The notes below the pieces were generated by a model that saw nothing but the letters and a program-made list of their open reading frames with translations, did no database searches and was not told the DNA's origin. From the NCBI GenBank assembly GCA_963816185.1, contig CAWFJJ010000028.1, positions 1-64,000 of the forward strand: a DNA stretch of 64,000 bases, written 5' to 3'. The position numbers and the translations under genes were made by a program. Numbering within the stretch: the stretch's first letter is position 1; every line of letters begins with the position of its first letter. Of this stretch, positions 676-54,124 are shown piece after piece. The stretch comes from Thermoanaerobaculia bacterium. GTDB taxonomy: Bacteria > Acidobacteriota > Thermoanaerobaculia > UBA5066.

Positions 676-699
676 GAAGGCTCGGCGTTTTCTTAGATG

Positions 700-723
700 C
701 GGCGGCTGCTGATGCAGCCGCCG
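700..723 (+). terminator. GC hairpin after lexA, possible terminator
   Basis: 10-bp stem CGGCGGCTGC-tgat-GCAGCCGCCG; no good U-tract. Confidence 0.4.
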
Positions 724-737
724 ATAGTTGAAATCTC

Positions 738-818
738 TTCCCCGGATGTCCGGTGTCAAGGGTCTTAGACCGCCACGCGGCGCGCGCAGCGCGCCCTTGA
801 CTCCGGACATCCGGGGAA
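738..818. repeat. Long inverted repeat (REP/MITE-like)
   Basis: Arms 738-762 and 794-818 match at 24/25 nt around a 31-nt loop. Confidence 0.85.
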
Positions 819-856
819 TATCCGACGCTCTTTCCTTCTCTTCCTAAGATGCATTC

Positions 857-1681: not shown

Positions 1682-1715
1682 CTCATCGCTCTTCGTGACT
1701 TATCCTCCCCTCAAC

Positions 1716-3491
1716 ATGCGCACGACACGCTTCACGGTCGCGATGCCGCGGCCCGAGACGCATCTTTACGAGATCACGATGGAGGTCGACCCGAAAGGAG
1801 CGACGACGCTCGACCTTGTCCTTCCCGTTTGGACTCCCGGTTCGTACCTCGTCCGCGAGTTCGCGCGACACGTGAGAGATTTTTCTGCGAGAGAGAAGGG
1901 CACCCGCGGGACCATTCCCGCCGAGAAGGTCGCAAAGAACATCTGGCGTCTCTCTTTACCTTCTAAGAAATCTCTCGGTCTCGTCTCCGTCTCCTATCGC
2001 GTCTACGCCCACGAGCTGAGCGTTCGCACGTCGCATCTCGACTCCTCGCACGGTTACGGCAACGGCGCGAACCTTTTCTTCTACGTGGACGGGAGGAAGG
2101 AGGAGCCGCACGAGCTGCTCTTCGCGCTCCCGCGCGGCTGGAAAGCTTCGATCGCCCTCCCGGCGCGCGGCCGTGTCTTTCGCGCCGCCGACTACGACGA
2201 GCTCGTGGATTCGCCCTTCGAGTGCGGAACGCACCGGACGTTCGAGTTCGCCGTGCACGGCGTGCCGCACACGCTCGCGATCTGGGGCGGCGGCAATGAA
2301 GACCCGGCGCGCCTCGCCAGGGATCTCAAGCGGCTCGTGCTCGAAGCGGCGGCCCTCTTCGGTGGCCTGCCGTACGAGCGATACCTGTTTCTCGTTCACC
2401 TGTCGGCCGGGGCCCGCGGGGGGCTCGAGCATCTCTCCTCCCAGTCGGTGGCGTTCGATCCTCACGCGTTTCGGCCCGAAAAGGCGTATCGGGACGCCCT
2501 TCTCGTCTTCTCGCACGAGCTGTTCCACGCCTGGAACGTCAAGCGCATCCGGCCCGAATCGTTCGGCCCCTTCGACTACGAAGGCGAGGTCTACACGAAG
2601 GACCTCTGGGCTCTCGAGGGTTTTACCTCCTACTACGAGGCGCTTCTCCTCGTGCGCGCCGGCCTCCTGACCGAGGCGCAGGCTTTCGAGGAGTGGATGA
2701 GACACTGGAAGGCGCACCTCGAGACACCGGGTCGATTCGTTCAGAGCGCCGAGTCGGCCTCCTTCGACGCGTGGATCCGCTTCTACCGTCCCGACGAGAA
2801 TTCGGTGAACGTGTCGGAAAGCTATTACCGCCGCGGCGCGATTCTCGGCCTCGCGCTCGACCTGACGCTCCGCCGCGCCACGGGCGGCCGGCGCGGCCTC
2901 GACGAGGTCTTCCGGCGCCTGTTCCGCACGTACGCCGCGAAGGGCCTGGGATATCCGCCGCGGGCCTTCGAAGACGCGGCGGCAAGGGTCGCCCCGTCGG
3001 GCGCCATGGTGCGGCGCTTTTTCGAACGCGCCGTGCGCGGGACCGGAACGCCGGATCTCGGGCGGCTCCTCGGGGCTGTGGGCCTGAGACTTCGCGAGGT
3101 GCCCGAGACCGAGGAGGGCGTGACGGAGGGGATGGCTCCGCGCCTCAGGGCCGATTTCGGATGGAAGACGAAAGTCGAGGACGGGCGGCTCGTCCTTGCG
3201 GAGGTCCACGACGAAGGGCCGGCCCTGCGCGCAGGCCTGAACGCGGGAGACGCGCTCGTCGCCTTCGACGCGCGCCGCGCCGGCGAGGAGCTGATCGCCC
3301 GGCTCGAGAAGGAGCGCAAGCCGGGAAGCGCCGTGAAGGTCACCGTGTTCCGGCGGGACATCCTGGAGACCCACCGCGTGCGTCTCGGCGGGAGGCGGGC
3401 GTCCGTCTGGAGGATCGAGGCCCTGCCCGACGCGTCGTCTGGCGCGAAGCGCCTGAAGAAGCGCTGGTTGAAGACGCGTGTCAGCGCTTGA
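1716..3491 (+). CDS. M61 glycyl aminopeptidase family with C-terminal PDZ
   Basis: PVWTPGSY, GGLEH, HELFHAWN zinc motif, EGFTSYY; start taken at ATG 1716. Confidence 0.93.
   Translation: MRTTRFTVAMPRPETHLYEITMEVDPKGATTLDLVLPVWTPGSYLVREFARHVRDFSAREKGTRGTIPAEKVAKNIWRLSLPSKKSLGLVSVSYRVYAHELSVRTSHLDSSHGYGNGANLFFYVDGRKEEPHELLFALPRGWKASIALPARGRVFRAADYDELVDSPFECGTHRTFEFAVHGVPHTLAIWGGGNEDPARLARDLKRLVLEAAALFGGLPYERYLFLVHLSAGARGGLEHLSSQSVAFDPHAFRPEKAYRDALLVFSHELFHAWNVKRIRPESFGPFDYEGEVYTKDLWALEGFTSYYEALLLVRAGLLTEAQAFEEWMRHWKAHLETPGRFVQSAESASFDAWIRFYRPDENSVNVSESYYRRGAILGLALDLTLRRATGGRRGLDEVFRRLFRTYAAKGLGYPPRAFEDAAARVAPSGAMVRRFFERAVRGTGTPDLGRLLGAVGLRLREVPETEEGVTEGMAPRLRADFGWKTKVEDGRLVLAEVHDEGPALRAGLNAGDALVAFDARRAGEELIARLEKERKPGSAVKVTVFRRDILETHRVRLGGRRASVWRIEALPDASSGAKRLKKRWLKTRVSA
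1952..1975 (-). repeat. Dispersed 23-bp motif copy within M61 peptidase
   Basis: Reverse complement reads AGAGATTTCTTAGAAGGTAAAGAG. Confidence 0.85.
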
Positions 3492-4938: not shown

Positions 4939-4967
4939 CTCGATGTCGGCTCTGAGTTCATTTTACT

Positions 4968-6293
4968 TCAACAGGGCCGCTGCGCGCGCGGAATCTCACG
5001 CAGCCGGCGGAGCCAGGCCCGGGCCGCGTGCGGCCCGTGAATTTCCGAAGATGCGAGAGCGAGGTCGAAGGCGGCGAGGGCTCGCCCGAGCTCTGGCCCT
5101 TCCTCGAGGCCGAGGAGAGAAGAGATTTCTTTGAAAGGAAGAGGGCGGGTCGGCTTCAGAATCCGGCGGAGCGATGCAGGGCGCCGGAGGATCTCTTGGG
5201 CCGCGCGGGCCAGCTCTCTGGCCCGCGAGTCGCCGGCTGCCAGGAGGAAAGCGATGGATTCTGCTTCGAAAGGGGAAGAGAGGCGAAGGAGCGCGGCCAC
5301 GTCATGTCGCGAGGGAGGGCGGCGGGCGGCGCGTGGCCCCGAGAGCGGGAGAGCGTAGAGCCTGCCCGCTAGCCGCAGCTCCTCCCGGCTGGTCTTCCAC
5401 CTTCTAAGAGAATTTTCGGCTCTCTTCGGACCCATCGGGAGAAGTAGGAGCGCCCGCGCGACACGGGGGTCGCGGGAGTCGAGGCGGGAGACGAGGGAGA
5501 GACCGCGGCGCCGCTGGCGCGCCGCCGTGCCGGGAAAGAGATTGCCGCGCCGCCCACGCGGCGCGCTGCTTAGAAGGAGGGATTCGAGAGCGCCGACGCG
5601 CTCGAGAAACCGCAGGCCCTGCACCCTTCCGGCGGCGGGCGCGCCGAGGAGCTTGTCGAGCTCGACGAGGCGTCTTTCGGCAGCGACCATTCGAAGCATC
5701 TTCGCGGCCTTACGAAGTTCCGGGATGGCCGCTCGAGCGATATGGAACCGGGGCAGCTCCGCGAGAAACCGCGCGGCCCTGAGGACCCTCAGAGGATCTT
5801 CCAGGAAGACCCCGGGCCGCGGCGGAGCAAGCCGTCTTCCTTTCAGATCGTCGAGCGCGCCAGGCGCGCTCGAGAACGCGCCTCCCGGGAGAGAGAAGGA
5901 GAGCGTGTTCACGGTGAAGTCGCGCCGAAGGAGGTCTTGAGCGGCGTCCTCCGCCTCTTCCCAGACGTCGATCTCGTGCGCGCCAAATGGCACCTTGAGG
6001 ATGCGCTTCGGCGGGGCGCCGATCCGCACGACGCGTGATCCGGCCCGCGTCGCGAGCTCCGTCGCGAGCCTTTCGGCGCTCAGCGGCGGCGCGACGAGGT
6101 CGAGATCTCCGCCCCTCCTTCCGAGGAACGCGTCGCGCACCGCTCCTCCGACGGCCCGGACACCGTCCTCCGGGCGCGCGAGGGACGCCGCGGCTGCAGC
6201 GTCGGCACGCCGGAGCAGAGAACGGAAGCCGCGCCGGATCGCGGGGTCGCTCGTCAGCGGGAGGCCTCGTCGCGCCCCGTCGGGGCGGGCCAT
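4968..6293 (-). CDS. CCA-adding enzyme / poly(A) polymerase family nucleotidyltransferase
   Basis: VGGAVRD...DLD, DLLRRDFTVN, EDPLRVLRAARF; start uncertain. Confidence 0.88.
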   Translation of the reverse strand: MARPDGARRGLPLTSDPAIRRGFRSLLRRADAAAAASLARPEDGVRAVGGAVRDAFLGRRGGDLDLVAPPLSAERLATELATRAGSRVVRIGAPPKRILKVPFGAHEIDVWEEAEDAAQDLLRRDFTVNTLSFSLPGGAFSSAPGALDDLKGRRLAPPRPGVFLEDPLRVLRAARFLAELPRFHIARAAIPELRKAAKMLRMVAAERRLVELDKLLGAPAAGRVQGLRFLERVGALESLLLSSAPRGRRGNLFPGTAARQRRRGLSLVSRLDSRDPRVARALLLLPMGPKRAENSLRRWKTSREELRLAGRLYALPLSGPRAARRPPSRHDVAALLRLSSPFEAESIAFLLAAGDSRARELARAAQEILRRPASLRRILKPTRPLPFKEISSLLGLEEGPELGRALAAFDLALASSEIHGPHAARAWLRRLREIPRAQRPC

Positions 6294-8287: not shown

Positions 8288-8324
8288 GCCTTTCGGGCGT
8301 CAAGCAGGCCGCTATACTTTCGCG

Positions 8325-11873: not shown

Positions 11874-11937
11874 TCGGCGATCGCGATTTCGAACCCCTGA
11901 AGATTTCTTCGAAGGAGGTTCGTTTGGCGAAGTCTGT

Positions 11938-12960
11938 TCACGCGCGGGGGCGAAGGCACGAGGGACAAGGAGGAAGAGGGAGATTTCTTTGAAGAAGGTT
12001 GATGGAACGCAGCCGATCGATGCGGGCCGCGCCGCAGCACGAGGGGGGGCCGAGAGCGTCGGCGTTCCAGAGGTCTGCGAGAACGACGCCCGCCACGCGG
12101 AGGTGCCTGTCTTCACTTTCTAAGAAATCTCCCGGGGCGTTCCCCTCTTCCCTTTCTAAGAAATCTTCAATTGCCATCTCCAAATCCTCGAGCGTGGGAG
12201 ACTCGAACAGGCCTTGCCTCTGCACCTCTTCCATCGCGCCGTTCCCGAGGCGCGTCGGAATGAGCGAAACGACGTCCGCGCCCGCCCGGAAGGACGTCTC
12301 GACGCTCGCACGCGTGGCACGCGGCCATTCCTCCCTCCGGAGAAACGGAAGACCGACGAGGACGAAGACCCTGAGGGAGATTCGATTCCGGAGGAGGAAC
12401 GATGCAGCGGCGAGGAAGTCCGCGACGGTCATCCCCTTGTTCAACCTTCTGAGGATTTCCTCGTTGGAGGTCTCGAGCCCGAGCGCGACCTGCAGCTCCG
12501 CGCCGCCGAGGAGATCGCGAAACCTCAGGGTCGACTCGCCGACGAGTGCGGGATGGCTTTCCACGACCACCCGCCCGAAGCCGCGTGCAAGCGAGGCGAT
12601 CTCCACGTGGTCCCCTCTCGGGATCGCCGCGCGGTCGAAGAAGCTGCCCGCGTTGTAGAGCTTCAGAACGTTCACGGACGGCAGCCTCTCCAGGGCAAAT
12701 CGCATCTGCGCCGGGATCGCGCCTTTCGGCGTCGGCGCTTCGAGAGTGTTCTTCCAGAGATCGCACATGAGGCAGTGCCACGGGCACTCCCGGTTCGTCA
12801 GGAGGATCGTGGCGACGTGATCCGTGCCGCCGCCCGTGCGCGGCTCCTCCTCGACGTAGAAGCCGTACGGGCGGTAGGGATCCACCGGGTTTCGCGGGGG
12901 CCTCAGGCCGAGGATCGATTCCTCGCTGGCCTCGCGACTCGCCGCCAAGAAGTCGATCAA
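11938..12960 (-). CDS. Radical SAM domain/protein, TIGR01210 (RaSEA)-like; in frame with the upstream Asn-synthetase-like ORF
   Basis: CPWHCLMC CxxxCxxC, KLYNAGSFFD, VVESHP, GLETSN...LNKG; possible own TTG start at 12960. Confidence 0.85.
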   Translation of the reverse strand: MIDFLAASREASEESILGLRPPRNPVDPYRPYGFYVEEEPRTGGGTDHVATILLTNRECPWHCLMCDLWKNTLEAPTPKGAIPAQMRFALERLPSVNVLKLYNAGSFFDRAAIPRGDHVEIASLARGFGRVVVESHPALVGESTLRFRDLLGGAELQVALGLETSNEEILRRLNKGMTVADFLAAASFLLRNRISLRVFVLVGLPFLRREEWPRATRASVETSFRAGADVVSLIPTRLGNGAMEEVQRQGLFESPTLEDLEMAIEDFLEREEGNAPGDFLESEDRHLRVAGVVLADLWNADALGPPSCCGAARIDRLRSINLLQRNLPLPPCPSCLRPRA

Positions 12961-24419: not shown

Positions 24420-24434
24420 CGGACGGTCCGAAGA

Positions 24435-24504
24435 GAGATTTTCTTAGAGGGTAAGAGGAGGAAGAGAGGGCTCTTTTCTGGCCCATTCACCTTCTAAGAA
24501 ATTT
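24435..24504. repeat. Forward/reverse pair of the dispersed motif between convergent ferredoxin and lipA
   Basis: GAGATTTTCTTAGAGGGTAAGAG (24435) and TTCACCTTCTAAGAAATTT (24486). Confidence 0.8.
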
Positions 24505-25414
24505 GCAGACCGACTCCCGGTGTGAGAGCGCGTCTCGCGTGATAGCTGGAGCGGACGAGCGGCCCTGACTCCACTCTCGCGAATCCCATCTCTTCGCCTT
24601 CCAGCCTGATCTCTTCGAACTCCTGCGGCGTGTAGTACCTCTCGATCGGGAGCCGCCGCGCGTGCGGCTGGAGGTACTGGCCGACCGTGACGACCTCGAC
24701 GCCGTTCGCGCGCAGATCCCGCAGGGTCTTCGACAGCTCCTCACGTGTCTCGCCGAGCCCCACCATGACCCCGCTCTTCACCTTCATCGAGATCTTCTCT
24801 TCGTCTTTTCTCTTTGCGGCGCGGCGGAGGAGCTCCAGCGACCGCGCGTAGACCGCGTCGGGCCGCACGCGCCGGTAGAGGCGCGCGACGGTCTCCGTGT
24901 TGTGGTTGAGGACTTCCGGCCGCGCGGAAAGGACGGTTTCGAGCGCGGCGTCGCTGCCGAGGAAGTCGGGGATGAGCACTTCGACCGTGACCCCGGGGGC
25001 GAGAGCGCGAATCTCCCGGATCGTGGCCGCGAAGTGCGCGGCCCCGCCGTCCGGCAGCTCGTCGCGGTTCACGGACGTCACGACGGCGTGCGCGACGCCC
25101 ATCGCCTTCACGGCTTCGGCGACGTGGCGCGGCTCCTCGGGATCGAGCGGCCTCCCGACGCCCTGCGCGACCGCGCAGAAGCCGCAGTGCCGCGTGCAGA
25201 CGTCGCCCATGAGCATGAATGTCGCCGTTCTCTCGACGCCCCAGCACTCGAAGATGTTCGGACAGCGCGCCTCCTGGCACACGGTGTTGAGGTGCTTGTC
25301 CTCGATGAGAGACGCGATGCCGCGCGAGGCCTCGTTGTCGTAGAGACGCACCTTCAGCCAGTCGGGCCGGGGGGTGATTCGGGAGAGGGGCCGGGGGGAG
25401 GGGGTCGCGCTCAC
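24494..25414 (-). CDS. lipA: Lipoyl synthase
   Basis: [24 protein letters not shown]; start at GTG 25414 inferred. Confidence 0.96.
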
Positions 25415-25578
25415 GGCCCCGAGTCTAGCGTGGTGCCGCGGCTCGCGAACCGGCCTGCGAAGTTGCTTCGAATGGTGAATGTGCCCTCGCGTCACTCTCA
25501 CTTTCGAAGAAATGCTGCCTTGCGGCTGTCGGGGCGTCGTTCGATAGGATCCGCGGCAACAAACCGCAGGAGGAAAGC

Positions 25579-27497: not shown

Positions 27498-29117
27498 CTA
27501 CTCGATGGCCTCCAGCTCGCTCCACGTACCCTTTTCGAGCGTCGCCTTGACGACGTTCACGAACGCGTCGCCCTCGGCTCCGTCGATGAGCCGATGGTCG
27601 AACGTGAGCGCGACGTAGCCCATCGTCTTGATGGCGAGCGAGTCGGAGCCGTCCGGCATCTCGACGACCTTCGCGCGCTTCTCGATCGCGCCGACGCCCA
27701 TGATGGCAACCTGCGGCTGGTTGATGACGGGCGTCGCGAAGAGAGACCCGAACGACCCGTGATTCGTCACGGTGAACGTGCCGCCCGCCACCTCGTCGGG
27801 GACGAGCTTCTTCGCGCGAGCCCGTGCGGCCAGGTCGTTCGCCGCGCGCGCGAGGCCGACCAGCGACAGGTCGTCCGCGCGGCGGATGACGGGCACGATG
27901 AGGCCCCAGTCGAGCGCGACGGCGATCCCGAGATTTACCTCGCGGTGGTAAACGACGTCTTCCCCGACGATGGAGGCGTTCACGAGCGGCCGCGCTTTGA
28001 GCGCCGCGACCGCCGCGCGAAGCAGGAACGGCAGGTAAGACAGCTTCGTGCCGTACTGCTGCTCGAAGCGGGCTTTCACCCGGTTCCGGAGCTTCGCGAT
28101 GCCCGAGTAGTCGACCTCGAACACCGTCGTCACGTGCGCCGAGGTCTGCTTCGACTCGACCATCCTCTGCGCGATCTTTCGGCGCATCGCGCTCATCGGC
28201 TCGACGGTGACGGCGCTCCCGGACGGGAAGGAGAGCGCGGTGGGAGACGGCGTCGGAGCGCGCGACGGAACGGGAGCGTCTGCCGGTCGCGCCGCGAGAA
28301 CGGAGGGTGCCGGCCGCGGAGGAGCTTCGGCGGATTGCTGAGAAGGTGCGGGAGAAGGAACGGGAGATTTCTCAGAAGGCGCGGGGGCGGGCGCGGCAGC
28401 CTGCGGGGCCGGCGCCGCGGTGGGTGCCGGCTGCACACCCTTCGAAGAATCTTCTCTTCCGGTCCCCGGCGCCGCCGCAGTCGGCGCTCGCGGGCTGGCC
28501 AGGTAAGCCTCGATGTCCTGCTTCGTCACGCGGCCCGAGATGCCCGTTCCCGGGATTTGAGAGATGTCGACGCCCTTCTCCTCCGCGATCGCACGGACGA
28601 CGGGCGACGAGCGGCGCCGAAGAAGCTCCTCCTGCGACTCCCCGGGCTGTGGGGGAGCGGAAGAGGAAGAGGGAATTGGAGATTGCTTAGAAGGCGCGGG
28701 GGAGGGCGCCGCAGCTTGGGCGGCCGGTGCCGCGGGGGCAGCGGGTGCCGGGGATTTCTGAGAAGGCGCGGGAACGGCTACCGCAGATGGTGCAGCCGAA
28801 GCCGCGGCGGTGGCCGGCTGCTCGTCTTTCGAAGAATCTTCCGCAGCCGGCGTAGCCGGCGGCGCAGAAACTTGTTCTCCCGCCTCCCCGAGGTGCGCGA
28901 CGACGGTGTTGATGGGCACCGTCTGGCCTTCCGGCACCAGGATCTCGAGCAGCGTTCCCGAAGCAGGCGCGGGGATCTCGGCGTCGACCTTGTCGGTGGA
29001 GATCTCGAAGAGGGGCTCGTCGCGCTTGACCGCGTCGCCGGGCTTCTTGAGCCACTTCGTGAGCGTTCCTTCGGCGATCGACTCGCCCATCTGCGGCATG
29101 ATGACGTTCGTCGGCAT
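27498..29117 (-). CDS. 2-oxoacid dehydrogenase E2 dihydrolipoamide acyltransferase
   Basis: Lipoyl domain ISTDKVDAE, E3-binding GTGISGRVTKQD, catalytic FDHRLIDG. Confidence 0.95.
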   Translation of the reverse strand: MPTNVIMPQMGESIAEGTLTKWLKKPGDAVKRDEPLFEISTDKVDAEIPAPASGTLLEILVPEGQTVPINTVVAHLGEAGEQVSAPPATPAAEDSSKDEQPATAAASAAPSAVAVPAPSQKSPAPAAPAAPAAQAAAPSPAPSKQSPIPSSSSAPPQPGESQEELLRRRSSPVVRAIAEEKGVDISQIPGTGISGRVTKQDIEAYLASPRAPTAAAPGTGREDSSKGVQPAPTAAPAPQAAAPAPAPSEKSPVPSPAPSQQSAEAPPRPAPSVLAARPADAPVPSRAPTPSPTALSFPSGSAVTVEPMSAMRRKIAQRMVESKQTSAHVTTVFEVDYSGIAKLRNRVKARFEQQYGTKLSYLPFLLRAAVAALKARPLVNASIVGEDVVYHREVNLGIAVALDWGLIVPVIRRADDLSLVGLARAANDLAARARAKKLVPDEVAGGTFTVTNHGSFGSLFATPVINQPQVAIMGVGAIEKRAKVVEMPDGSDSLAIKTMGYVALTFDHRLIDGAEGDAFVNVVKATLEKGTWSELEAIE

Positions 29118-29134
29118 GGTCTCTTCTCCGGTGG

Positions 29135-31188: not shown

Positions 31189-31302
31189 CTTCGGGGGCTC
31201 GTCCGGATTTCGGAGCGAGGGGCGATTATCAAGGGCCGCTCCTCCGAGGGTCAAACGACCCGGCGAAGGGGGCGCGCGCCGCGCATGCCGCCCTCCGGGC
31301 TC

Positions 31303-32583: not shown

Positions 32584-33945
32584 CGGACGTTCTCAAGTTC
32601 GGCGGCACCTCGGTCGGATCGGCCGAGCGGATCCGCGACGTCGCGCGCCTCGTGAAGACGCGCGGGGGAGACTCGAGCCTCGTCGTCGTCTCGGCGATGG
32701 CCGGTGTGACGGATCTTCTGGTCGGATTGAAGAATTCTTCGAAGGGTAAAGAGCGGGGCGCCGCCGAGGCCACACTCGACGAGTTGGAAGGTCGCCACCG
32801 CGCCGCGCTCGATGGGCTTGCCCTCCCGGAAAGCGAAAGGCGGACCTGCGCCCTCGCGATCGAAGAGGAGATGCGGCGATGCCGTGAGCTTTCTCTCGGA
32901 ATCTCTCTACTCGAAGAAATCTCTCCTCGAACCTCGGACGCGCTCCTCGCGATCGGAGAATTGATCTGCTCGCGCTTCGTGGCCGCCGCGCTTCGCGCGG
33001 GCGGGGCGGAGGCCGTGTGGATCGACCCGCGCGAGATCCTCGCGACGAACGCCGCGCACGGCGCGGCCCTTGCGGACGAGAAGGAAACGGCCGCCCGCGT
33101 CTCCAGGCACGTGGCGCCTCACCTCGCGGCGGGGCGGGTCGTCGTGACGGGAGGCTTCGTCGGTGCCGCTCCGGACGGCTCGACGACGACGCTCGGCCGT
33201 GGCGGATCGGACTACTCGGCCGCGCTCTTCGGCGCCGCGCTCCATGACATGGGCCGCGCCGTGGGCCGCATCGAGATCTGGACCGACGTGGACGGAATCC
33301 TGACGGCCGACCCGCGCATCGTGCCCGCGGCGCGCCTCGTTCCCGAGGTGAGCTATCCCGAGGCGGCCGAGCTCGCGTTCTTCGGAGCGAAGGTGCTCCA
33401 TCCGGCGACGATCCGCCCTGCCGTGGCGCGAGGGATCCCGGTCGCCGTGAAGAACTCGTTCAGGCCCGATTGTCCCGGCACGATCGTGCGGCAGGACGTC
33501 GCCCGGAAACGGCGTGAGAGCCGTCGCGATGCGCACGGGGGTGACGGCGCTCTTCGTGGGCAGTCCGCGCATGCTGCTCGCCCATGGCTATGCCGCCAGG
33601 GTCTTCTCCGTCTTCGAAAAGCACGGCGTGCCGGTGGACGTCATCGCCACGAGCGAGGTGTCGATTTCGATCACCGTGGACGCGAAAGCCTTGCTCGAGG
33701 GCGTCGTGCGCGACCTTTCCGAGTTCGCCGAGGTCTCGGTTCTCCGGAACCTCGCGGTCGTGTCCGTCGTCGGAAAGGCTCTGCGCTCGACGGCGGGCGT
33801 CGCCGTGCGCATCTTCGGCGCCGTCGGCGACGTGAACGTCGTCCTCATCTCCCAGGGCGCCTCCGACACGAACGTGACGTTCGTGGTCGACGGGAACGAC
33901 GCGCCGGAGGCGCTGCGCAGGCTTCACCGGGAGTTCTTCGAATGA
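32580..33945 (+). CDS. lysC: Aspartate kinase, frameshifted near 33505
   Basis: [31 protein letters not shown]; ACT domains in ORF 33514..33945. Confidence 0.93.
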
Positions 33946-34766
33946 AAGCGCTCCTCGTCGGATACGGGAAGATGGGGAAGACGATCGAGATCGCGCTCGT
34001 CCACAGGGGGCACGAAGTCGCTGGACGGTTGGGGCGCAAAGAGATTTGCTTAGAAGGGGAAGAGGGGAAGGGTGACCTATGGAGCGCGTCGAGCAATGCC
34101 GCGGATCCGGCTTCGCCGCAGCAGGCCAGCGAGAAGTCCTATTCACTTTCTGAGAAGTCTTTATCCTCGTCTCTCTCTTCGGACCTCCCGGTTTGCGACA
34201 TCGCGTTCGAGTTCACGACACCGGCGTCCGCGCCGATCGTCGTCCCCCTCCTTCTTTCGCGGAAGATCCCCGTCGTCTCCGGCACCACTGGCTGGGACGT
34301 GACTTCGGCCGTGCACATCGCACGGGAGCAGAAGGTTCCTTTTCTTCATTCCTCGAATTTCTCCCTCGGCGTCGCGGCGCTGCGGCGCGCCGTCGCCGCC
34401 GCGGCCGCCGCGCTCGCGCCGTTTCCCGAGTTCGAGCCGGGAGTCATGGAGCGGCATCACGCGGCGAAGAAAGACTCTCCTTCGGGGACGGCTCGCGTTC
34501 TCGCGCTCGACATCTCGCGCGAGCCCCTTTCGAAGAGATCCGTGCCGATCGTCTCTCTCAGGCAGGGCGGCCAGCCGGGAGAGCATTCGGTCTACTTCGA
34601 GGGCGCGGACGAGACGGTGGAGCTCGTGCACCGCGCCCGGTCGCGTTCGATCTTTGCCCAGGGCGCCGTGCGCGCCGCGGAATGGATGCTCGTATCGGGC
34701 CGAGCGGGCCCGGTGACCTTCGACGAATTCTTCGACGACCTGTCGCTCAAGGGGGGCGCCTCATGA
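33942..34766 (+). CDS. dapB: 4-hydroxy-tetrahydrodipicolinate reductase with ~40-aa internal insertion
   Basis: GYGKMG, SGTTGW, NFSLG, ERHHAAKKDSPSGTA, FAQGA. Confidence 0.92.
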   Translation: MKALLVGYGKMGKTIEIALVHRGHEVAGRLGRKEICLEGEEGKGDLWSASSNAADPASPQQASEKSYSLSEKSLSSSLSSDLPVCDIAFEFTTPASAPIVVPLLLSRKIPVVSGTTGWDVTSAVHIAREQKVPFLHSSNFSLGVAALRRAVAAAAAALAPFPEFEPGVMERHHAAKKDSPSGTARVLALDISREPLSKRSVPIVSLRQGGQPGEHSVYFEGADETVELVHRARSRSIFAQGAVRAAEWMLVSGRAGPVTFDEFFDDLSLKGGAS

Positions 34767-36495: not shown

Positions 36496-36553
36496 CGGGA
36501 AAAGAAGAAAGAGTTGCACGCGGCCTGCGGCCGCGTGATTCTTAGAAAGGTAA

Positions 36554-37843
36554 TTGGTCTTGGCGGACTCGCTGATCCGTCGCGCCGCGGCTCGGTTCGG
36601 GACTCCGCTGTATCTGTACGACTTCGAGGTCATCGCGGCGCGAGTCCGCGCGCTGCGCGCGGCGCTCGGCCCTCGATTCACGCTGGCCTACGCCGTAAAG
36701 GCAAACCCATCGCTAGCCGTGCTGTCGCTTTTCTTCGAAAGGGGGTTGGGGGCGGACGTCGCATCCCGAGGCGAGCTGCTCGCGGTGCGCCGCGCAGGAT
36801 GTCCTGCTTCGAAGATCCTCTCGACCGGTCCTGCGAAAACTGATGCGGACCTCGAAGCGCTCGTGCGAGCCGGCGTGTCGATCATCCATGCGGAAGGCGA
36901 ATGGGAGCTCGCCAGACTCGAAGAGATCGCGAAGCGCGCGCGACGCACCGTTCGCGTCGGCCTCCGGCTCAACCCGCCCTGGGGGATCGCCGAGAAGCGC
37001 GTCATAATCGGCGGCCCCGGCGCGAAGAAGTTCGGGTTCGACCTCCGGACCGCCGAGAGAGTTCTTAGAAAGTGGAAGAGCGGAGCGGGAGGGCCGGACG
37101 CCTACCCCCATCTGGATCTCTGCGGCTTTCAGGTGTTCAACGCCTCGAACGTCCTCGACGCGCGGCTCCTCGTCGAGAACACGCGCCACGTGCTCTCCCT
37201 CGCCCTTTCCCTTTCGAGGAAATACGACGTTTCTCTTCTCTCCGTGGATTTCGGCGGGGGCTTCGGCGTGCCCTATGCGGCGTCCGAAGAGCACCTCGAT
37301 CTAAGAGTTCTTAGAAGGGGTCTGGAGGAGATCGCGAGGCGCGTCGAGTTGGAGCCTCGGCTTCGGCGGGCTCGGCTGGTGTTCGAACCAGGCCGGTTCC
37401 TCGTTGCGGAGGCGGGGATGTACGTGACCCGCGTCCTCGGCACCAAGAGAAGCCGCGGCGTCGACTACGTCCTCATAGACGGTGGCGTCCACCACTTCCT
37501 CCGGCCGGTCCTCCTCGGAACGCCTCACCGCGTGAGGCTCGTCAGGAGAAAGGCAGGCGCTCGCGGCGGTCGATCTTCACCTTCTAGGAAATCTCTAGTT
37601 CTTTCGGGCCCCCTCTGCACGTCCCTCGACGTCCTCCACCCGTCCGCTGACCTGCCACTCCCGGTGCGGGGAGACCTCCTTGCCTTCGAGAACGCCGGCG
37701 CATACGGGTTCACCGAGTCGATGCCTCTCTTTCTCTCGCACGGGTGGCCGGCCGAGGTCGGCGTGTCGAAGGGCCGGCTGGCGCTCCTGAGGCGGCCTCC
37801 GACGGTGGAATCGCTTCTTCGCGCGCAAAGGCGGCGGCTTTGA
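36554..37843 (+). CDS. lysA: Diaminopimelate decarboxylase (group IV PLP decarboxylase)
   Basis: GTPLYLYD, YAVKAN PLP Lys, DFGGGFG, EPGRF, GPLC, GAYG; last gene of the dap operon. Confidence 0.8.
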   Translation: MVLADSLIRRAAARFGTPLYLYDFEVIAARVRALRAALGPRFTLAYAVKANPSLAVLSLFFERGLGADVASRGELLAVRRAGCPASKILSTGPAKTDADLEALVRAGVSIIHAEGEWELARLEEIAKRARRTVRVGLRLNPPWGIAEKRVIIGGPGAKKFGFDLRTAERVLRKWKSGAGGPDAYPHLDLCGFQVFNASNVLDARLLVENTRHVLSLALSLSRKYDVSLLSVDFGGGFGVPYAASEEHLDLRVLRRGLEEIARRVELEPRLRRARLVFEPGRFLVAEAGMYVTRVLGTKRSRGVDYVLIDGGVHHFLRPVLLGTPHRVRLVRRKAGARGGRSSPSRKSLVLSGPLCTSLDVLHPSADLPLPVRGDLLAFENAGAYGFTESMPLFLSHGWPAEVGVSKGRLALLRRPPTVESLLRAQRRRL

Positions 37844-39395: not shown

Positions 39396-41120
39396 ATGAG
39401 CGATCAGTTCACCCGCGAAGCGACGGACGTTCCGGCGACGCTTCCCCTGACTGCCGAGCAGGAGCGCATCCGGAAGGCGAAGGAGGCGTGGCGCGCGAAA
39501 GCCGCGGCCGCGTTCGCGAAGACACCCCGCTGGAAGAAGGACTTCACGACGATCTCGTCCGCCGCCGTGAACGCGCTTGCGACGCCGGACGACCTTCCCG
39601 GCTTCGACTTCGACCGCGACCTCGGCTGGCCGGGCGAGTTCCCGTACACGCGCGGCGTGCAGGCCACGATGTACCGCGGGCGGCCGTGGACCATCCGGCA
39701 GTTCGCAGGCTTCGGCAACGCGAAACAGACGAACGAGCGGTTCAAGGCCCTGCTCGCGCACGGGCAGACGGGCCTCTCCACGGCCTTTCACCTGCCGACT
39801 CTCTACGGCTACGACTCCGACCATCCCATGTCGGCCGGCGAAGTGGGGAAGTGCGGCGTCGCGATCGACACGCTGCGCGACTTCGAGGCGCTTTTCGACG
39901 GCATCGATCTCGGCGCGGTGACGACGTCCATGACGATCAACTCGACCGCCCCCATCGCGCTCGCGATGTATCTCGCGGTCGCCGAGCAGCACGGCACGCC
40001 GTGGTCGAGGGTCGGCGGCACGCTCCAGAACGACATCCTCAAGGAATACATCGCCCAGAAGGAGTACATCTTTCCGCCCCGTCCCTCGATGCGGCTCGTG
40101 ACGGACCAGTTCGCGTTCTGCGCGAAGCACGTTCCGAAGTGGAATACCGTGTCGATCTCCGGGTACCACATTCGCGAGGCCGGGGCGACCGCGCTCCAGG
40201 AGCTCGCGTTCACCCTCCGCGACGGGATGGAGTACGTTCGGTACGGCATCGACGCGGGCCTCGACGTCGACGCCTTTGCGCCCCGCCTCTCATTCTTCTT
40301 CAACGCCCACAACGACTTTTTCGAGGAGATTGCGAAATACCGCGCGGCGCGACGCGTCTGGGCGAAGGTCATGCGGGATCGCTACGGCGCGAAGAAGACC
40401 GAGAGCTGGAAGATGCGCTTCCATTCGCAGACTGCGGGGGTTTCGCTCACGGCACAGCAGCCGTACAACAACGTGGCGCGCGTCGCAATCCAGTCCCTCG
40501 CGGCCGTGCTCGGAGGTACGAACTCGCTTCACGCGAACGCGCTCGACGAGACGCTCGCCCTGCCGACGGAGTTCGCCGCGAAGATCGCCGTCAGGACGCA
40601 GCAGATCATCCTGCACGAGACGGGAGTCGTCAACACGGTCGACCCGCTCGGCGGCTCGTACTTCGTTGAAGAGCTGACGAACCGGATGGAGGCAGGCACG
40701 TTCGACTACTTCCGACGGATCGACGCTTTCGGCGGGATGGTGGAAGCCATCGAGGCGGGTTTCCCGCAGAGGGAGATCATGGACGCCGCGTACCGCTACC
40801 AGCGAGCCGTCGACGCGAAAGAGAAGATCATGGTCGGCGTCAACGCATTCACGGACTCGGTTCCGGAGGACGAGGTTTCGATCCTGACGATCTCCGAGCA
40901 GATGGCCGCCGAGCAGGTGAAGTCGCTCGCGGAAGTCCGAAGGACGCGCGACTCGCGCGCGGCGATGCAGAAGCTCACGGACCTCAAGGCCGCTTGCGCT
41001 GGCGGGGCGAACGTGATGCCGCCTCTCGTCGAGGCCGTGAAGGCTTACGCCACGGTCGGCGAGATCTCCGACGTCATGCGCGAGGTCTTCGCGACGTACG
41101 AGGAACCGGCAATTTTTTGA
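39396..41120 (+). CDS. Acyl-CoA mutase large subunit (MCM family, isobutyryl-CoA mutase-like)
   Basis: [38 protein letters not shown]; no B12-binding domain. Confidence 0.92.
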
Positions 41121-41138
41121 GAAGAGAGACCGAAGAAA

Positions 41139-41238
41139 AGACTTCTTAGAAAGGTGGAGCGGACGGCCCGGCGGTCCGAACTGGCGCTGCAGCATCCGAC
41201 GGCCGCGCTCTCGAGGTCCATTCACTTCTAAGAAGATC
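41139..41238. repeat. Forward/reverse pair of the dispersed motif, intergenic
   Basis: AGACTTCTTAGAAAGGTGGAG (41139) and CATTCACTTCTAAGAAGATC (41219). Confidence 0.75.
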
Positions 41239-41310
41239 CTCTTCGAACCTTCCGCTGAGCGTCGCCATTCCGAAGGGGTGTCCCGGCCCGGATCTTGCGA
41301 GGTAGACTGC

Positions 41311-43296: not shown

Positions 43297-43997
43297 GGAG
43301 AACCCGTCCAATTCGGGTTGGCGGGTCGGCCCTCGTCTCAGTTTTTTTTTGCTTAGGAGGTGGATGCGGCAGCGGGCGGCCCGCGAAATCCGAAGCGCCA
43401 TCTCCCGGTGCGTCGGTGGTGGAGGCATATGAGAGGGCGCGTGCAACGGCGTGGGATCCCGCGCGCCGCTTCAAAGCGCTCTTCAAGGCTGAGGTCTCGC
43501 GGAACGTCGGCGCGATTTTGCGAGGCTACCTCTCCGTCTGGTGGAACGGCGCAGCCAGCACGCTCACCTGGCGGTCTTCGGCACCTCTTGCCGGGAGAGG
43601 GAGAGGGGGACTTCTTAGAAAAGGGACGAGGGGCGAGGAGGAAAGCGATGGCGGAGCGCCTGGATCGCGCCAGTCGTTGCTCCCCGGTCGGTTTGTTTCG
43701 GACGACATCCTCATGTGCATTCTCGGCGTTCCCGAGGCCGCGCTCTCTTCCTCTTCACCATTCGAAGAAACTCCGAGAGGCTTTCGGCTGCGCATCGGGG
43801 GCTCGAAGCGCTTCGTCCTCGTGAACCGTGAGGGAAAGCCGATCGAGTTCTCTTTCCCGAACGGCGAGACGGTGAAGGTTCAGCCGGGGGAAGGCGTGCC
43901 GCGCCGAATCGAGGCGAACGGCCCGGAAGGCCGTGCCGTCCTCACGCTCGAAACCTATTCGTCCTGGCCCGAGGGCGAGCGGGTTCCCCCGGCATGA
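43293..43997 (+). CDS. Hypothetical putative lipoprotein at the lolB position
   Basis: Overlaps both neighbours by 4 nt; hydrophobic N-terminus with GGGC lipobox-like motif. Confidence 0.6.
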   Translation: MRRTRPIRVGGSALVSVFFCLGGGCGSGRPAKSEAPSPGASVVEAYERARATAWDPARRFKALFKAEVSRNVGAILRGYLSVWWNGAASTLTWRSSAPLAGRGRGGLLRKGTRGEEESDGGAPGSRQSLLPGRFVSDDILMCILGVPEAALSSSSPFEETPRGFRLRIGGSKRFVLVNREGKPIEFSFPNGETVKVQPGEGVPRRIEANGPEGRAVLTLETYSSWPEGERVPPA

Positions 43998-44924
43998 GCG
44001 AGACCGGAAGGGCGCTGACCGTCGAGGCGTTCGCGAAGGTGAACCGCTCGCTGCGCAGTGCTGGGTAAGCGTCCAGACGGCTTTCACGAGCTCGACACGA
44101 TCTTTCAGACGGTGGATCTCACCGACAGGTTGTATTTCTTAGAAGGTGAAGAGAGCGGAAGAGCGACGGGCCACGTCTCGCTGACGGTGGAGGGCGTCGA
44201 TCTTCCCGCAGACTCCAGCAATCTCATTCTCCGCGCCGCTGACGCGCTGCGCGTGCGCTTCTCGGTGCGCCTCGGCGCCCGTATTCACCTTTCTAAGAAG
44301 ATCCCCTTGGGCGGTGGCCTTGGCGGAGGCAGTTCGAACGCGGCTGCGGCGCTGAGGGGCCTGGTCGCGCTCTGGAAGCTGCCCGCGACCGAAGCCGATC
44401 TGCACGCCGTGGCAGCCTCCCTCGGGTCCGACGTGCCTTTCTTTCTGATCGGCGGCCGAGCGCGAGGCACGGGGCGCGGCGAAATTCTGGAGCCTCTTCC
44501 GGACGGCCCCGAGGAGTGGCTCATCCTCGCCTTTCCATCGTTTTCTCTTTCCACGGCAGCGGTTTACGGGGCAGTTTCCGTCCCTGCGTTGACAGATTCC
44601 GTCGCCCAAACTAACCTTGGCGGTTCCGGATCCGGTGGCGGGCCGGATCGGAACGACCTGGAGCCGGCGGCGGAATCCCTCCGTGGAGAGCTGCGCAGGC
44701 TTCGTCTGGCCCTGTCGGACTTCGGCGCGACGAGCGCACGCCTGTCCGGGAGCGGCTCGACGGTGTTCGGGGTATTCGGCGACGAAAGAAACGCCCGGCG
44801 CGCCTTCGAAGGGCTCGCTGGGGTTCGGAAAGAAGTGATGGCGACGATGACGATCGTGAAGACCGTGTCGAAGGCGGCGTTCGTGCGCCGGGCGATGCCC
44901 TCGGACAGGGTGCAACGCGGATGA
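43994..44924 (+). CDS. ispE: 4-diphosphocytidyl-2-C-methyl-D-erythritol kinase, frameshifted near 44057
   Basis: FAKVN (from ATG 43994), then KRPDGFHEL, KIPLGGGLGGGSSNAA, GSDVPFF, LSGSGS. Confidence 0.93.
44133..44303. repeat. Forward/reverse pair of the dispersed motif inside ispE
   Basis: TATTTCTTAGAAGGTGAAGAG (44133) and TTCACCTTTCTAAGAAGATC (44284). Confidence 0.85.
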
Positions 44925-44961: not shown

Positions 44962-45036
44962 TGGGGAGTCGACAAGTGGTAAGTCAGCGGTCTTTGGAAC
45001 CGCCATTCGGAGGTTCGAATCCTCCCTCCCCAGCCA
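44962..45036 (+). tRNA. tRNA-Gln(TTG)
   Basis: TGGGGAG/CTCCCCA acceptor stem, GCGGT-CTTTGGA-ACCGC anticodon arm, GGTTCGAATCC T-arm, encoded CCA; canonical ispE-prs position. Confidence 0.97.
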
Positions 45037-47517: not shown

Positions 47518-47607
47518 ACATCAACCTTGGCTCGGCACCGGACCAGAGGTCCAAAGCCGCGCCTCGCGACCGGCGAATACCGGCGCGATCCAGAAGGAGG
47601 AGACCGC

Positions 47608-48057: not shown

Positions 48058-48081
48058 CCCGAAAAGGTTCAGGAGAACACA

Positions 48082-49306: not shown

Positions 49307-49341
49307 TCGGTGACATACCCTGTAAACCTGAGGAGCTCGAA

Positions 49342-49791: not shown

Positions 49792-49816
49792 GCCGGGCGC
49801 CAACGGCGTTTCGTCT

Positions 49817-51541: not shown

Positions 51542-51562
51542 CACCTGAGCCTGGCGAGTGGA

Positions 51563-54124
51563 ATGAAGTTGGGCCCCTACGAGATTCTCGCGCCTCTCGG
51601 GTCTGGCGGGATGGGAGAGGTCTACCGGGCGAAAGACCCGAGGCTCGCGAGAGATGTCGCGGTAAAGGTACTGCCGAGAGATTTCTTAGAAGGTGAAGAG
51701 AGGAAAGAACGCTTCGAGAGGGAAGCGAGGCTGCTTGCGGCGCTGAATCACCCGGGCATCGCTGCCATCTATTCATTCGAAGAAATCCCCGGTTCTCCCG
51801 GCTCCTCGGCAGTTCACGTTCTTACGATGGAGCTTCTCGAGGGGGAAACGCTCCGTGCGCGCCTCGCGTCCGGGCCGCTCCCCTTACGCAAGGCAGTGGA
51901 CTTCGCTGTCCAGATCGCCCGGGCTCTAGCTGCCGCGCACGAGAAGGGCGTTGTCCACCGGGACCTCAAGCCCGAGAACCTCTTCGTGACGAGGGACGGC
52001 CGGATCAAGATCCTCGACTTCGGCCTCGCGAAGTCCGTCGAAAAAGGTGCCGGATCCGGCGGCACGAACCTGCCGACTATGTCGAAAGGCACAGAGCCGG
52101 GCGCGGTCCTCGGGACGCTCGGCTACATGTCGCCCGAGCAGCTCCGCGGTCTGCCGACGGACCACCGGACCGACCTCTTCAGTTTCGGCGCCGTCCTGTA
52201 CGAGATGCTCTCCGGGCGCAAGGCGTTCCGGGGCGACACGGCGGCCGACACGGTCTCGGCGATCCTGCGCGAGGAGCCGCAGGACCTCTCAGCGACGAAT
52301 CGGACGATCCCGCCGGCCCTCGAGCGCATCGTGCGTCACTGCCTCGAGAAGAGCCCGGACGAGAGGGCACATTCCGCGCACGATCTCGCGTTCGACCTCG
52401 AGTCCCTTTCGACGGCGTCCTCGGGCGCCGTGCCGGCCTCCGTTCCCCGGATTGCGGTCCGCCGGCCGCGGGCGGGCCAGATCCTCGCGGCCGCGGCGTG
52501 CGTCGCCGCGGGCGTCGTCGCCGGCCGGCTTCTCTGGAAAACAGCCGCGCCGGCCCCACCGACGTTTCACCGGCTCACGTTCCGGCGCGGGAACGTCCTC
52601 TCGGCGCGCTTCGCTCCGGACGGGCGGACGATCGTTTACGGTGCGGCCTGGGGAGGCAATCCGTCCGAGATCTACACGGTTCGGACGGAGGGACCCGAGT
52701 CGCGGCCGCTCGGCCTTCCGAACGCGACGGTCGCTTCAGTGTCGTCGACGGGCGAGCTCGCAATGTTCTCGCGCGAGGGGATGACGACGATGGGGGCTTG
52801 GGCCACGCTCTCTCGCGTGCCACTCGCGGGCGGCGCTCCGAGGCCGCTCCTCGAGGAGGTCGGCGCGGCCGACTGGACGCCCGACGGCAAGGAGCTCGCC
52901 GTCATGCGGGTCCGCGAGGGGGGAGGGCGCCGCCTCGAGCTCCCAGCGGGCAAGACGCTCTTCGAGACGAAAAAGAGAACGGAGGGGCTGCGCGTCTCGC
53001 CGGACGGCAAGCACGTCGCAATCGCGGAAGTGGACGGCGAGAAGACTTCGCTCGTCGTCGTGGACCTCGCCGGCAAGGCCCGCACGGTCGTCGGACCCTT
53101 GCAGGTCCTCGTGGGGACGTTCGCGTGGCTTCCGTCGGGGCGCGAGATCCTGTTCTACGGCGGCGCCTCCCGCGACGACACCGCCCTGCGCGCCGTCGAC
53201 CTTTCCGGACGCGTGCGCACGCTCTATCGGTCCACCGGGGTCCTCTTCGTGCACGACGTGTTCCCGGACGGGCGGGTGCTCGTCGAGCACGCGATGAGCC
53301 TCCGGGGCCTCATGTTCGCGCGCGCCTCGGACGGGCAGGAGACGGACCTCTCGTGGTTCGACTCCTCGAATGTCGCGGACGTCTCCATCGGGGGGAAGGC
53401 CCTCCTTTTCAACGAAGAGGGCGAGGCGACGGGCGGGACGCCGCGCGCGTTCTTCCGGAGGACGGACGGCTCGCCGGCCGTGCGGATCGGCGACGGCGCC
53501 GGGCTCGCTCTCTCACCGGACGCGAGCCGCGCGCTCGTGCGGGAAGGCGACGGCGTCGCGGTCGTCCCCGTGGGAGCCGGCACGCCGCAGCGTCTCGCGC
53601 TCGGGCCCGTCGCGGACGTGACGGGCGCGACGTTCTTCGCCGACGGAAAGAGGATCCTTCTCTACGGTTCCGAGAAGGGGAAGGGCCCTCGGTTCTGGAT
53701 CGTCGAGCCGCCTGCCGAACCGCGCGCGGTCACGCCCGAGAACACGCTGGGCGCCGCGGGTCTCCTGTCACCCGACGGCCTGAGGGTCGTCGTGTGGTCC
53801 GCGGACACGTCCATCCTCTCGATCCTTCCGCTCGGCGGCGGGCCAGCGGTCGCGCTCGCGGGCACCGAGCACGACGACCCGATCGCTTGGACGCCGGACG
53901 GACGGGGGCTGTACGTGAGGCCAGGAGGCGGAGAGTCCGGCCGGATCGAGATCCTCGACGTGACCACGCGGACCCGCAAGCCCTGGAAAATTCTCGCCCC
54001 GCCGGACCCGGCGAGCGTCTCGGAGATCTCATCGGGCGCGTTCGCCCGCGACGGCTCGGCGTACGCATACACGTATCGGCGCGTCCTGACGTCGGACCTC
54101 TACGTCGTCGAGGGCCTGAAGTGA
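51563..54124 (+). CDS. Ser/Thr protein kinase with TM and PD40/beta-propeller domain
   Basis: GSGGMGEVY, VAVK, HRDLKPEN, DFG, YMSPEQ; repeated SPDG/WTPDG. Confidence 0.95.
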   Translation: MKLGPYEILAPLGSGGMGEVYRAKDPRLARDVAVKVLPRDFLEGEERKERFEREARLLAALNHPGIAAIYSFEEIPGSPGSSAVHVLTMELLEGETLRARLASGPLPLRKAVDFAVQIARALAAAHEKGVVHRDLKPENLFVTRDGRIKILDFGLAKSVEKGAGSGGTNLPTMSKGTEPGAVLGTLGYMSPEQLRGLPTDHRTDLFSFGAVLYEMLSGRKAFRGDTAADTVSAILREEPQDLSATNRTIPPALERIVRHCLEKSPDERAHSAHDLAFDLESLSTASSGAVPASVPRIAVRRPRAGQILAAAACVAAGVVAGRLLWKTAAPAPPTFHRLTFRRGNVLSARFAPDGRTIVYGAAWGGNPSEIYTVRTEGPESRPLGLPNATVASVSSTGELAMFSREGMTTMGAWATLSRVPLAGGAPRPLLEEVGAADWTPDGKELAVMRVREGGGRRLELPAGKTLFETKKRTEGLRVSPDGKHVAIAEVDGEKTSLVVVDLAGKARTVVGPLQVLVGTFAWLPSGREILFYGGASRDDTALRAVDLSGRVRTLYRSTGVLFVHDVFPDGRVLVEHAMSLRGLMFARASDGQETDLSWFDSSNVADVSIGGKALLFNEEGEATGGTPRAFFRRTDGSPAVRIGDGAGLALSPDASRALVREGDGVAVVPVGAGTPQRLALGPVADVTGATFFADGKRILLYGSEKGKGPRFWIVEPPAEPRAVTPENTLGAAGLLSPDGLRVVVWSADTSILSILPLGGGPAVALAGTEHDDPIAWTPDGRGLYVRPGGGESGRIEILDVTTRTRKPWKILAPPDPASVSEISSGAFARDGSAYAYTYRRVLTSDLYVVEGLK
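51677..51787. repeat. Forward/reverse pair of the dispersed motif inside the kinase gene
   Basis: AGAGATTTCTTAGAAGGTGAAGAG (51677) and CTATTCATTCGAAGAAATC (51769). Confidence 0.85.

Follow-up and report, generated by a model that had tools for sequence, protein, structure and literature searches.

A polar word of about 31 nucleotides, commonly arranged in facing pairs, is dispersed through genes and spacers of an acidobacterial genus

The stretch analysed here, referred to throughout as the window, comprises the first 64,000 nucleotides of contig CAWFJJ010000028.1 (C28:1-64000) of a Thermoanaerobaculia bacterium (assembly GCA_963816185.1; 5.09 Mb in 30 contigs, approximately 67% G+C, 94.9% complete; G000 in our numbering and the host genome below). 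The UvrB protein of this genome has 89-95% identity to proteins from metagenome-assembled genomes labelled Thermoanaerobaculia or Acidobacteriota. Its genes include those for an M61 peptidase, a CCA/poly(A) polymerase-family protein, a 2-oxoacid dehydrogenase E2 protein, aspartate kinase, DapB, a decarboxylase of the BtrK/LysA family, IspE and a protein with a Ser/Thr kinase domain, and within and between these genes a purine-rich word recurs on both strands. An earlier reading of the window from its letters alone (the original prediction) had described this word as a dispersed, asymmetric motif present about 40 times and had proposed that selection acts on the DNA rather than on the encoded protein. 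A computational follow-up of that proposal is reported here.

Copies of the word in the window, the genome and coding DNA

Aligned matches to an 11-mer core (540 in the host genome with at most one mismatch) displayed about ten purine-rich positions, ATTTCTTAGAA and then GG(T/G)GAAGAGGG, giving a polar word of approximately 31 nt in which a purine-rich tract is interrupted by ATTTCTTAGAA and followed by GGTGAAGAGGG. The motif length had been given as 23 bp, but the sequence quoted with it had 24 letters. A 31-nt weight matrix was built from the genome-wide copies, and one copy scored with this matrix is called an arm. Taken singly, an arm contains a 4+4 near-palindrome but no hairpin.

In the window 49 arms scored at least 12 and 41 scored at least 16, which bears out the predicted number of about 40 copies. 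Arms of at least 12 were found on the predicted strand at 38 of the 40 positions listed (forward 21/23, reverse 17/17) and arms of at least 16 at 35 of them (forward 19/23, reverse 16/17), while the forward positions 688 and 5568 carried no arm of at least 12 on that strand. The exact 24-mer occurred once, rising to 4 copies with at most three mismatches (compared to 0 in 100 shuffles), and the 14-mer core GATTTCTTAGAAGG, again with at most three mismatches, occurred 33 times compared to 1.93 expected (largest value 5). Genome-wide, 983 arms scored at least 16, about 1 per 5 kb, compared to 56 in a third-order Markov simulation of the genome, which was used as the control because the reversed matrix is uninformative for a word that is nearly mirror-like. 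The strict count used across genomes (a 13-mer with at most one mismatch, with the reversed pattern as control) gave 270 matches in the host genome (136 forward, 134 reverse) compared to 3 and 0 for the control. No account of the word, or of repeats in this clade, was found in the full-text literature (main texts, with few subscription journals), in which the motif string matched only two unrelated papers, and the exact 21-mer had 0 matches among viral contigs.

Genes were called with a codon-likelihood caller made for this analysis, which is not an annotation; a confident gene was defined by a score density of at least 22 for counts of frame, codon shuffling and arm density, and of at least 18 for counts of pair placement and of distance to stop and start codons. 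The 3394 confident genes contained 322 arms scoring at least 16, compared to a mean of 58.9 (maximum 67) in 10 within-gene shuffles of synonymous codons, so that the word exceeded a codon-aware null 5.5-fold; for arms of at least 20 the corresponding figures were 258 and 23.8. This null is conservative because amino-acid sequences already shaped by the word are kept. Composition could be ruled out as the source of the excess, since the Markov, reversed-pattern and codon-shuffle controls were all exceeded.

Arms in confident genes used all six frames (sense 38, 50 and 33; antisense 48, 52 and 20) and therefore yield six peptides, namely ISSK, FLEGEE, FLRR, SPSKKS, FEE(I/S)P and LLRN, and the variant TTCTTCGAA was found in place of the consensus where the consensus would create a stop codon. 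The peptides and host genes singled out by the original prediction were largely recovered: VLPRDFLEGEE and IYSFEEIPG are present in the kinase, YFLEGEE and HLSKKIP in IspE, and LPSKKSL in the M61 peptidase, within its Peptidase_M61_N domain, and all three hosts had been named correctly. The peptide VLRRG is also present, but its gene, which had been called LysA, is closest to BtrK-type decarboxylases. Relatives outside the clade had GC-rich codons and other residues at the aligned positions, with no change in length. Taken with the use of six frames and the 5.5-fold enrichment, these other residues agree with the view that selection acts on DNA rather than protein, and the word is under pressure at the DNA level and not at the protein level. 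The statement that most copies sit inside genes was too strong, as 347 of 966 arms (36%) lay in confident genes genome-wide.

Convergent pairing and placement

The original prediction listed forward and reverse copies without noting that they form convergent pairs. Among 1060 arms scoring at least 14, 620 (58%) made up 310 pairs in which a forward arm was followed 30-260 bp later by a reverse arm (5th percentile 65, median 97, 95th percentile 209 bp), equivalent to one pair per 16 kb; divergent neighbours within 260 bp numbered only 16. For 260 strong arms left unpaired, a weak partner (score of at least 10) was present on the inner side in 104 cases and on the outer side in 9. Pair interiors were GC-rich and unrelated between units, with 249 of 299 lacking a second match in the host genome, and most of the 50 with matches belonged to paralogous kinases or duplicated contigs. 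Exactly 93 nt separated the arms of 17 pairs, 16 of which had interiors that cross-matched each other or the window kinase.

Position-wise complementarity of partner arms equalled that of a swapped-partner control, and two subtypes of inner flank combined at random (27 AB pairs observed compared to 25.0 expected). Each arm of a pair is drawn from the consensus independently of its partner, and distinct left and right ends were rejected on the independence of the arm subtypes. The mean duplex energy was -41.6 kcal/mol for true partners compared to -39.6 kcal/mol for swapped ones (P = 0.005), while complementarity of the inner flanks was no better than in swapped controls (P = 0.18). Pair-specific base pairing was accordingly rejected, there being none position by position and only the excess of 2 kcal/mol in duplex energy, and a conserved interior hairpin was rejected on the median folding z of the interiors (-0.68 compared to -0.11 for random DNA). 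As there was no sign of selection for pair-specific base pairing, recognition of the arms as duplex sites is favoured over a hairpin.

Arm density was 0.094 per kb in confident genes, 0.357 in low-scoring open reading frame (ORF) calls and 0.535 outside calls. Of the 310 pairs, 113 lay wholly inside confident genes. A further 195 lay between them, in spacers flanked by genes of the same direction (136), by divergent genes (39) or by convergent genes (20); 84 pairs were upstream of a gene. Arms peaked 20-60 nt past stop codons (82) and 20-60 nt ahead of start codons (60), as would be given by a unit of 100-150 bp filling an otherwise short spacer. The richest 20-kb bin of the genome was the second bin of the window, with 24 arms. 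An approximately five-fold difference in arm density was seen between large contigs (29 arms in the 467 kb of contig C29, 222 in the 644 kb of C28), for which chromosome position, an accessory replicon or binning could be responsible. A selection of the arms of the window is listed in Table 1.

Table 1. Arms of the word in the window, with their setting and their state in the related genomes G011 and G003
Coordinates	Feature	Arms (strand, score)	Setting
1873..1979	Convergent pair, M61 peptidase N-terminal domain	1887 (+, 21.2), 1965 (-, 36.8)	Both arms present in G011 and G003
5117..5420	Arm and convergent pair	5131 (+, 32.9); 5266 (+, 22.9) / 5406 (-, 26.8)	C-terminal half of CCA/poly(A) polymerase-family ORF; all three arms in G011 and G003
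11895..12172	Cluster	11909 (+, 18.5), 11989 (+, 26.1), 12122 (-, 32.0), 12158 (-, 39.3)	Between and into two convergent gene ends; 12158 kept in G011 and G003, 12122 missing from G003 through a gap
24431..24510	Short convergent pair	24445 (+, 33.1) / 24496 (-, 30.5)	Part of an insert (about 105 nt) that separates two convergent genes
25454..25521	Short convergent pair, intergenic spacer	25468 (+, 16.8) / 25507 (-, 28.6)	In gaps in both G011 and G003
28326..28846	Two arm sets	28340 (+), 28373 (+), 28445 (-); 28688 (+), 28760 (+), 28832 (-)	Two Ala/Pro-rich linkers of 2-oxoacid dehydrogenase E2 gene (minus strand, 27498-29138); encode PSxKSP and EDSSK
32725..32928	Convergent pair, aspartate kinase gene	32739 (+, 32.4) / 32914 (-, 21.8)	Encode LKNSSKGKE and LLEEISP
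34037..34274	Convergent pair, in-frame stretch in DapB	34051 (+, 34.0) / 34152 (-, 29.3)	Further arm 34260 (-) encodes LLSRKIP
36529..37600	Six arms	36543 (+), 36735 (+), 37066 (+), 37217 (-), 37312 (+), 37586 (-)	In and before BtrK/LysA-family decarboxylase gene; at 36735 the core lies the other way round in three relatives, which also show an indel of 6 nt
41133..41244	Convergent pair	41147 (+, 30.4) / 41230 (-, 23.1)	Fills spacer between two same-direction genes
43602..43779	Convergent pair, upstream of IspE	43616 (+, 27.1) / 43765 (-, 23.8)	
44126..44309	Convergent pair inside IspE	44140 (+, 31.2) / 44295 (-, 28.4)	Encode the two IspE peptides given in the text; kept in G011 and G003
51673..51794	Convergent pair, Ser/Thr kinase domain	51687 (+, 35.4) / 51780 (-, 30.5)	Arms 93 nt apart

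Phyletic spread, origin and turnover

The strict 13-mer count was 89-368 per genome in the 26 other genomes searched from the host genus (27 including the host genome) and 1-35 per genome in all 8 genomes of the sister genus (g17); the matches listed for the latter included convergent pairs with spacings of 77, 93 and 176 nt. It was 0-2 in 26 genomes from eight other genera of the family and 0-4 in 12 genomes from two other families of the order (two of which, G019 and G024, are flagged as unpublished); the reversed control gave 0-4 per strand in every genome listed.

At the aspartate kinase gene, both arms were found at identical alignment positions in the 15 rows of the genus that were read in frame (a further row, L006, was frameshifted at the arms and is outside these 15), and four rows from other families had GC-rich codons and other residues there. 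The closer outgroups G020 and G022 had no length change, and two distant outgroups had one 2-residue gap that fell between the arms and not at them. Five genomes of the sister genus contained graded intermediates; the second arm reads CTCCTCGGGGAG in the outgroup and one sister-genus genome, CTTCTCGAAGAAG in other sister-genus genomes and CTACTCGAAGAAAT in the window. Compared with solved homologous structures, IspE and the decarboxylase likewise had no insertion at their arms. The lack of insertion at genic arms, together with the sister-genus intermediates, indicates that the word was written into genes by point substitution.

Within DapB, an in-frame stretch that includes the second arm was present in the host genome and G012 and absent from G003, G011 and G017, and more distant members of the genus carried the + arm only. 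Units in spacers are gained and lost along with 100-150 bp of DNA that is unique in other respects. The unit that follows the gene ending at 41120 was present in 3 of 27 genus genomes (the host genome, G011 and G074), with a short empty spacer in 23, and the units at 24420 and 25440 were absent from both G011 and G003, the flanking genes abutting at 24420. No full-length donor for the lineage-specific inserts was found in the host genome, where only their arms matched elsewhere, and three comparisons of filled with empty sites, made by eye, gave no clear target-site duplication. Metagenome evidence came from four DNA runs (shares 0.32-0.38) as assembled contigs only, which hide rare variants; a contig of run X4 joined 41168 to 41281, and contigs of one run had 147 other letters in place of 43307-43395. 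Overall, 28 of 45 window arms were kept in G011 and 21 of 45 in G003.

Several further observations were made at these loci. In genome G007 the spacer (L131) orthologous to window positions 41120-41310 held a different, unrelated long palindromic insert, and this spacer seems to attract hairpin-like DNA. One contig of run X3 ended at 41989 in a tail resembling a sequencing adapter, which would be an artefact of the public assembly concerned. The two E2 linkers are alike and each carries the same three-arm set, 348 nt apart, which suggests that duplication of the linker copied the arms. A single stop-free frame of 1087 codons (31503-34766) spans Asd, aspartate kinase and DapB. Within it, the C-terminal parts of Asd and of aspartate kinase (for the latter the expected ACT region, beyond about 33470) look like GC-rich sequence translated out of frame, suggesting a frameshift, overlapping frames or an error of assembly. 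A tRNA gene (44962-45033) directly follows IspE and was the only match at the gathering score in an Rfam 15 search of the window. Approximately 3.1 kb of extra DNA was present at 31268-31298 in both G011 and G003, approximately 3.4 kb at 36480-36592 in G003 and approximately 2.4 kb with a kinase-TPR gene at 39375 (window 39371-39380) in G011, each at or beside arms. Most breaks in the synteny alignments to close relatives coincided with arms, and since the AT-rich arms also lower coding scores, caution is warranted in annotating these GC-rich genomes.

Known systems and possible readings

Uptake sequences, that is the uptake signal sequences (USS) and DNA uptake sequences (DUS) for which molecular drive has been proposed in Haemophilus and Neisseria, resemble the acidobacterial word in several respects. 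They are lineage-specific words with hundreds to thousands of copies in both orientations equally; they occur within coding DNA in several frames, at tolerant residues, and were largely made in place; they are kept at orthologous positions, are rare in recently mobile DNA and commonly form inverted pairs. According to PMC2817400 they number 1,471 and 1,892 copies per genome and sit where the residues encoded are poorly conserved; according to PMC2397512 the core genome is enriched in DUS, recently acquired genes lack them, and inverted pairs are frequent. The acidobacterial word differs in being approximately 31 nt long and purine-rich rather than built on a core of 9-12 nt, in having as its unit a convergent pair 40-260 bp apart with divergent arrangements nearly excluded, in its strong enrichment outside genes and in its host, an Acidobacterium. 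The analogy with uptake sequences drawn in the original prediction holds in several respects: the word is specific to a lineage, arose by point substitution, is conserved at orthologous positions and is nearly absent from insertion sequence (IS)-like repeats. It does not extend to the convergent pair unit, the denser occurrence outside ORF calls or the turnover of spacer units. No uptake-sequence system, and none of the matS or parS type that had also been invoked, is known to have convergent pairs 40-260 bp apart. Genes for ComEC, DprA and two secretins were present in the host genome and in most control genomes as well; being common genes, they lend weak support to uptake.

The reading that we prefer, tentatively and at somewhat less than an even chance, is that the pairs are sites in duplex DNA for a putative protein and have been spread by a drive like that of uptake sequences. 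A sequence-specific protein would engage two facing copies across 40-260 bp; the copies are not transposed units, those in genes being made in place by point substitution where the encoded protein tolerates it; and DNA carrying the word would be favoured in a process repeated throughout the genome, most probably DNA uptake or recombination among cells of the clade. This would amount to a molecular drive like that put forward for Haemophilus and Neisseria, with the paired site as preferred substrate. The parts of this reading differ in strength: recognition of the word as duplex DNA is slightly more likely than not, whereas its spread by uptake or recombination is possible but doubtful.

A number of results weigh against this reading. 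Arm density outside ORF calls is 5.7 times that in confident genes, the arms are clustered (variance 18.0 compared to a mean of 4.2 per 20 kb), and their overall density is several times below that of USS and DUS. Uptake sequences work singly, their inverted pairs lying at most 21 nt apart in terminators (PMC2397512), and an uptake model predicts no convergent pairs with a median spacing of 97 bp; with the majority of acidobacterial arms in convergent pairs of this median spacing, the single copy is not the evident functional unit. A strong duplex would form between any two arms, with a slight advantage for true over swapped partners; the gain and loss of whole units in spacers resembles mobile DNA; arms are little more conserved than their flanks (identity 0.870 compared to 0.845, with the arm higher in 13 of 23 gap-free comparisons); and no binding protein was identified for the word. 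It is because the uptake model leaves the pairing rule, the low density and the intergenic enrichment unexplained that the combined reading is held at no more than a tentative level.

The pairing rule and the floor on spacing would suit two bound proteins meeting across a loop, and the pairs could bind an enzyme that organises the chromosome or works on two sites, be it a nucleoid protein, topoisomerase or looping factor, under selection at each locus and with no drive. The number of pairs, their uneven density along contigs and the independence of the arms in sequence are in keeping with such an enzyme, which we nevertheless consider unlikely: the arms are conserved only a little better than their flanks, units are readily lost among close species, a copy number ranging from 1 to 368 per genome is odd for essential architecture, and there is no candidate protein. 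Similarly unlikely is that the arms are the stem of a hairpin element in RNA or single-stranded DNA with a role like that of repetitive extragenic palindromic (REP) sequences, in transcript stabilisation, processing or cistron coupling. Such a role retains some weight because the arms duplex strongly, and slightly better with their true partners; in addition, intergenic units fold into long hairpins, the arms peak just past stops and before starts, most between-gene pairs separate same-direction genes and density is highest outside ORF calls. Partner arms, however, show no covariation, inner flanks are no more complementary than in swapped controls, interiors are barely more structured than random DNA, and more than a third of the pairs lie wholly within confident genes, where they arose by substitution; moreover, stem pairing alone needs no fixed sequence and would not forbid the divergent arrangement. 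REP elements are hundreds of short repeats per genome, with inverted doublets and REP-associated tyrosine transposases (RAYTs), and doublets with poorly conserved spacers are termed REPINs. The acidobacterial units share with them the copy number, the inverted doublets, the poorly conserved spacer, the ability to fold as hairpins and the restriction to a lineage, but differ in that 36% of arms lie in confident genes, in that an arm by itself lacks a hairpin and in that genic copies arose by substitution. A REPIN/RAYT system was rejected because the word is not extragenic only and because the Y1 transposase family PF01797 had no match in the host genome (6 of 14 control genomes matched); nor did the Rfam search return a family for the units. 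Intrinsic terminators were rejected on loops of 40-200 nt and on the greater number of pairs in divergent than in convergent spacers; the predominance of same-direction spacers among between-gene pairs likewise argues that the units are not terminators, and unlike close terminator hairpins they are not concentrated between convergent genes (20 of 195).

That the pairs are decayed MITEs (miniature inverted-repeat transposable elements), the arms being terminal inverted repeats, is less probable still. The arms are arranged like such repeats at element-like sizes, and spacers are polymorphic for presence or absence (3 of 27 genomes at 41120, the host genome only at 24420 and 25440), with indels at polymorphic spacers also in metagenome contigs. 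Most interiors are nevertheless unique, recent inserts have no donor copy, arm subtypes are independent, genic copies arose without insertion, and target-site duplications were not clear by eye. None of 35 multi-copy regions (at least 500 bp, 57 kb in total) was bounded by convergent arms, and these regions carried an arm at one locus only (three copies) compared to approximately 12 predicted from genome density; MITEs were rejected on the unique interiors, the inserts without donor and the want of any multi-copy element with these ends. IS-like repeats of 1.3-2.7 kb in 7-10 copies are present in the host genome (for example C28:269659-270977 and C24:740735-743418), none of them motif-bounded. 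Rickettsia palindromic elements and MITEs share with the acidobacterial units a palindromic build of 100-150 bp, in-frame presence in genes (as in DapB) and polymorphism, but the acidobacterial interiors are not conserved, most genic copies are without insertion and no autonomous partner was found among the multi-copy regions. Integron attC sites have conserved inverse end motifs and a variable interior of comparable length; the acidobacterial units differ in being dispersed through the core genome and through genes, with no one-way cassette arrays and with unrelated end motifs. Invertons were rejected, the colinear 301-nt alignments to G011 and G003 (0.7-0.9 identity) of those window arms that align without gaps having no inverted interior, and no strand-change joints were listed in contigs of the four metagenome runs, which hide rare variants. 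That the word serves as operator for the regulon of an ordinary transcription factor, or results from composition or codon use, is very improbable: its core TTCTnAGAA is a near-palindrome of the kind bound by dimeric regulators, and some pairs do lie upstream of genes, but approximately 1000 sites per genome, a third of them inside genes, exceed by far what a regulon would hold, and the three controls described above rule out composition.

The paired, drive-spread site remains our preferred reading, and there is a substantial chance that the word is something without precedent. It is possible, although doubtful, that the clade has a new two-site machine for reading DNA, with a polar 31-nt code in facing pairs written by drive into approximately 1000 places, among them housekeeping genes in all six frames; such a machine could serve as a receptor for uptake, as a factor in recombination or as a protein that folds the chromosome. 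To our knowledge, the uptake sequences of two proteobacterial families are the only well-established examples of words that have been written over coding sequence throughout a genome. They have shaped the debate on whether selection or molecular drive underlies the evolution of transformation, and no uptake-sequence system is known to us outside the Proteobacteria. The clade provides another, independent example, in an abundant uncultured group, and if DNA uptake proved to be the process involved it would be the first such system outside the Proteobacteria and the first with a paired signal. The pairing rule constrains how a reader protein must work, for which the 31-mer and a paired fragment are a concrete bait, and the graded series of genomes, with 1 to 368 strict copies, allows the build-up of the word to be followed site by site.

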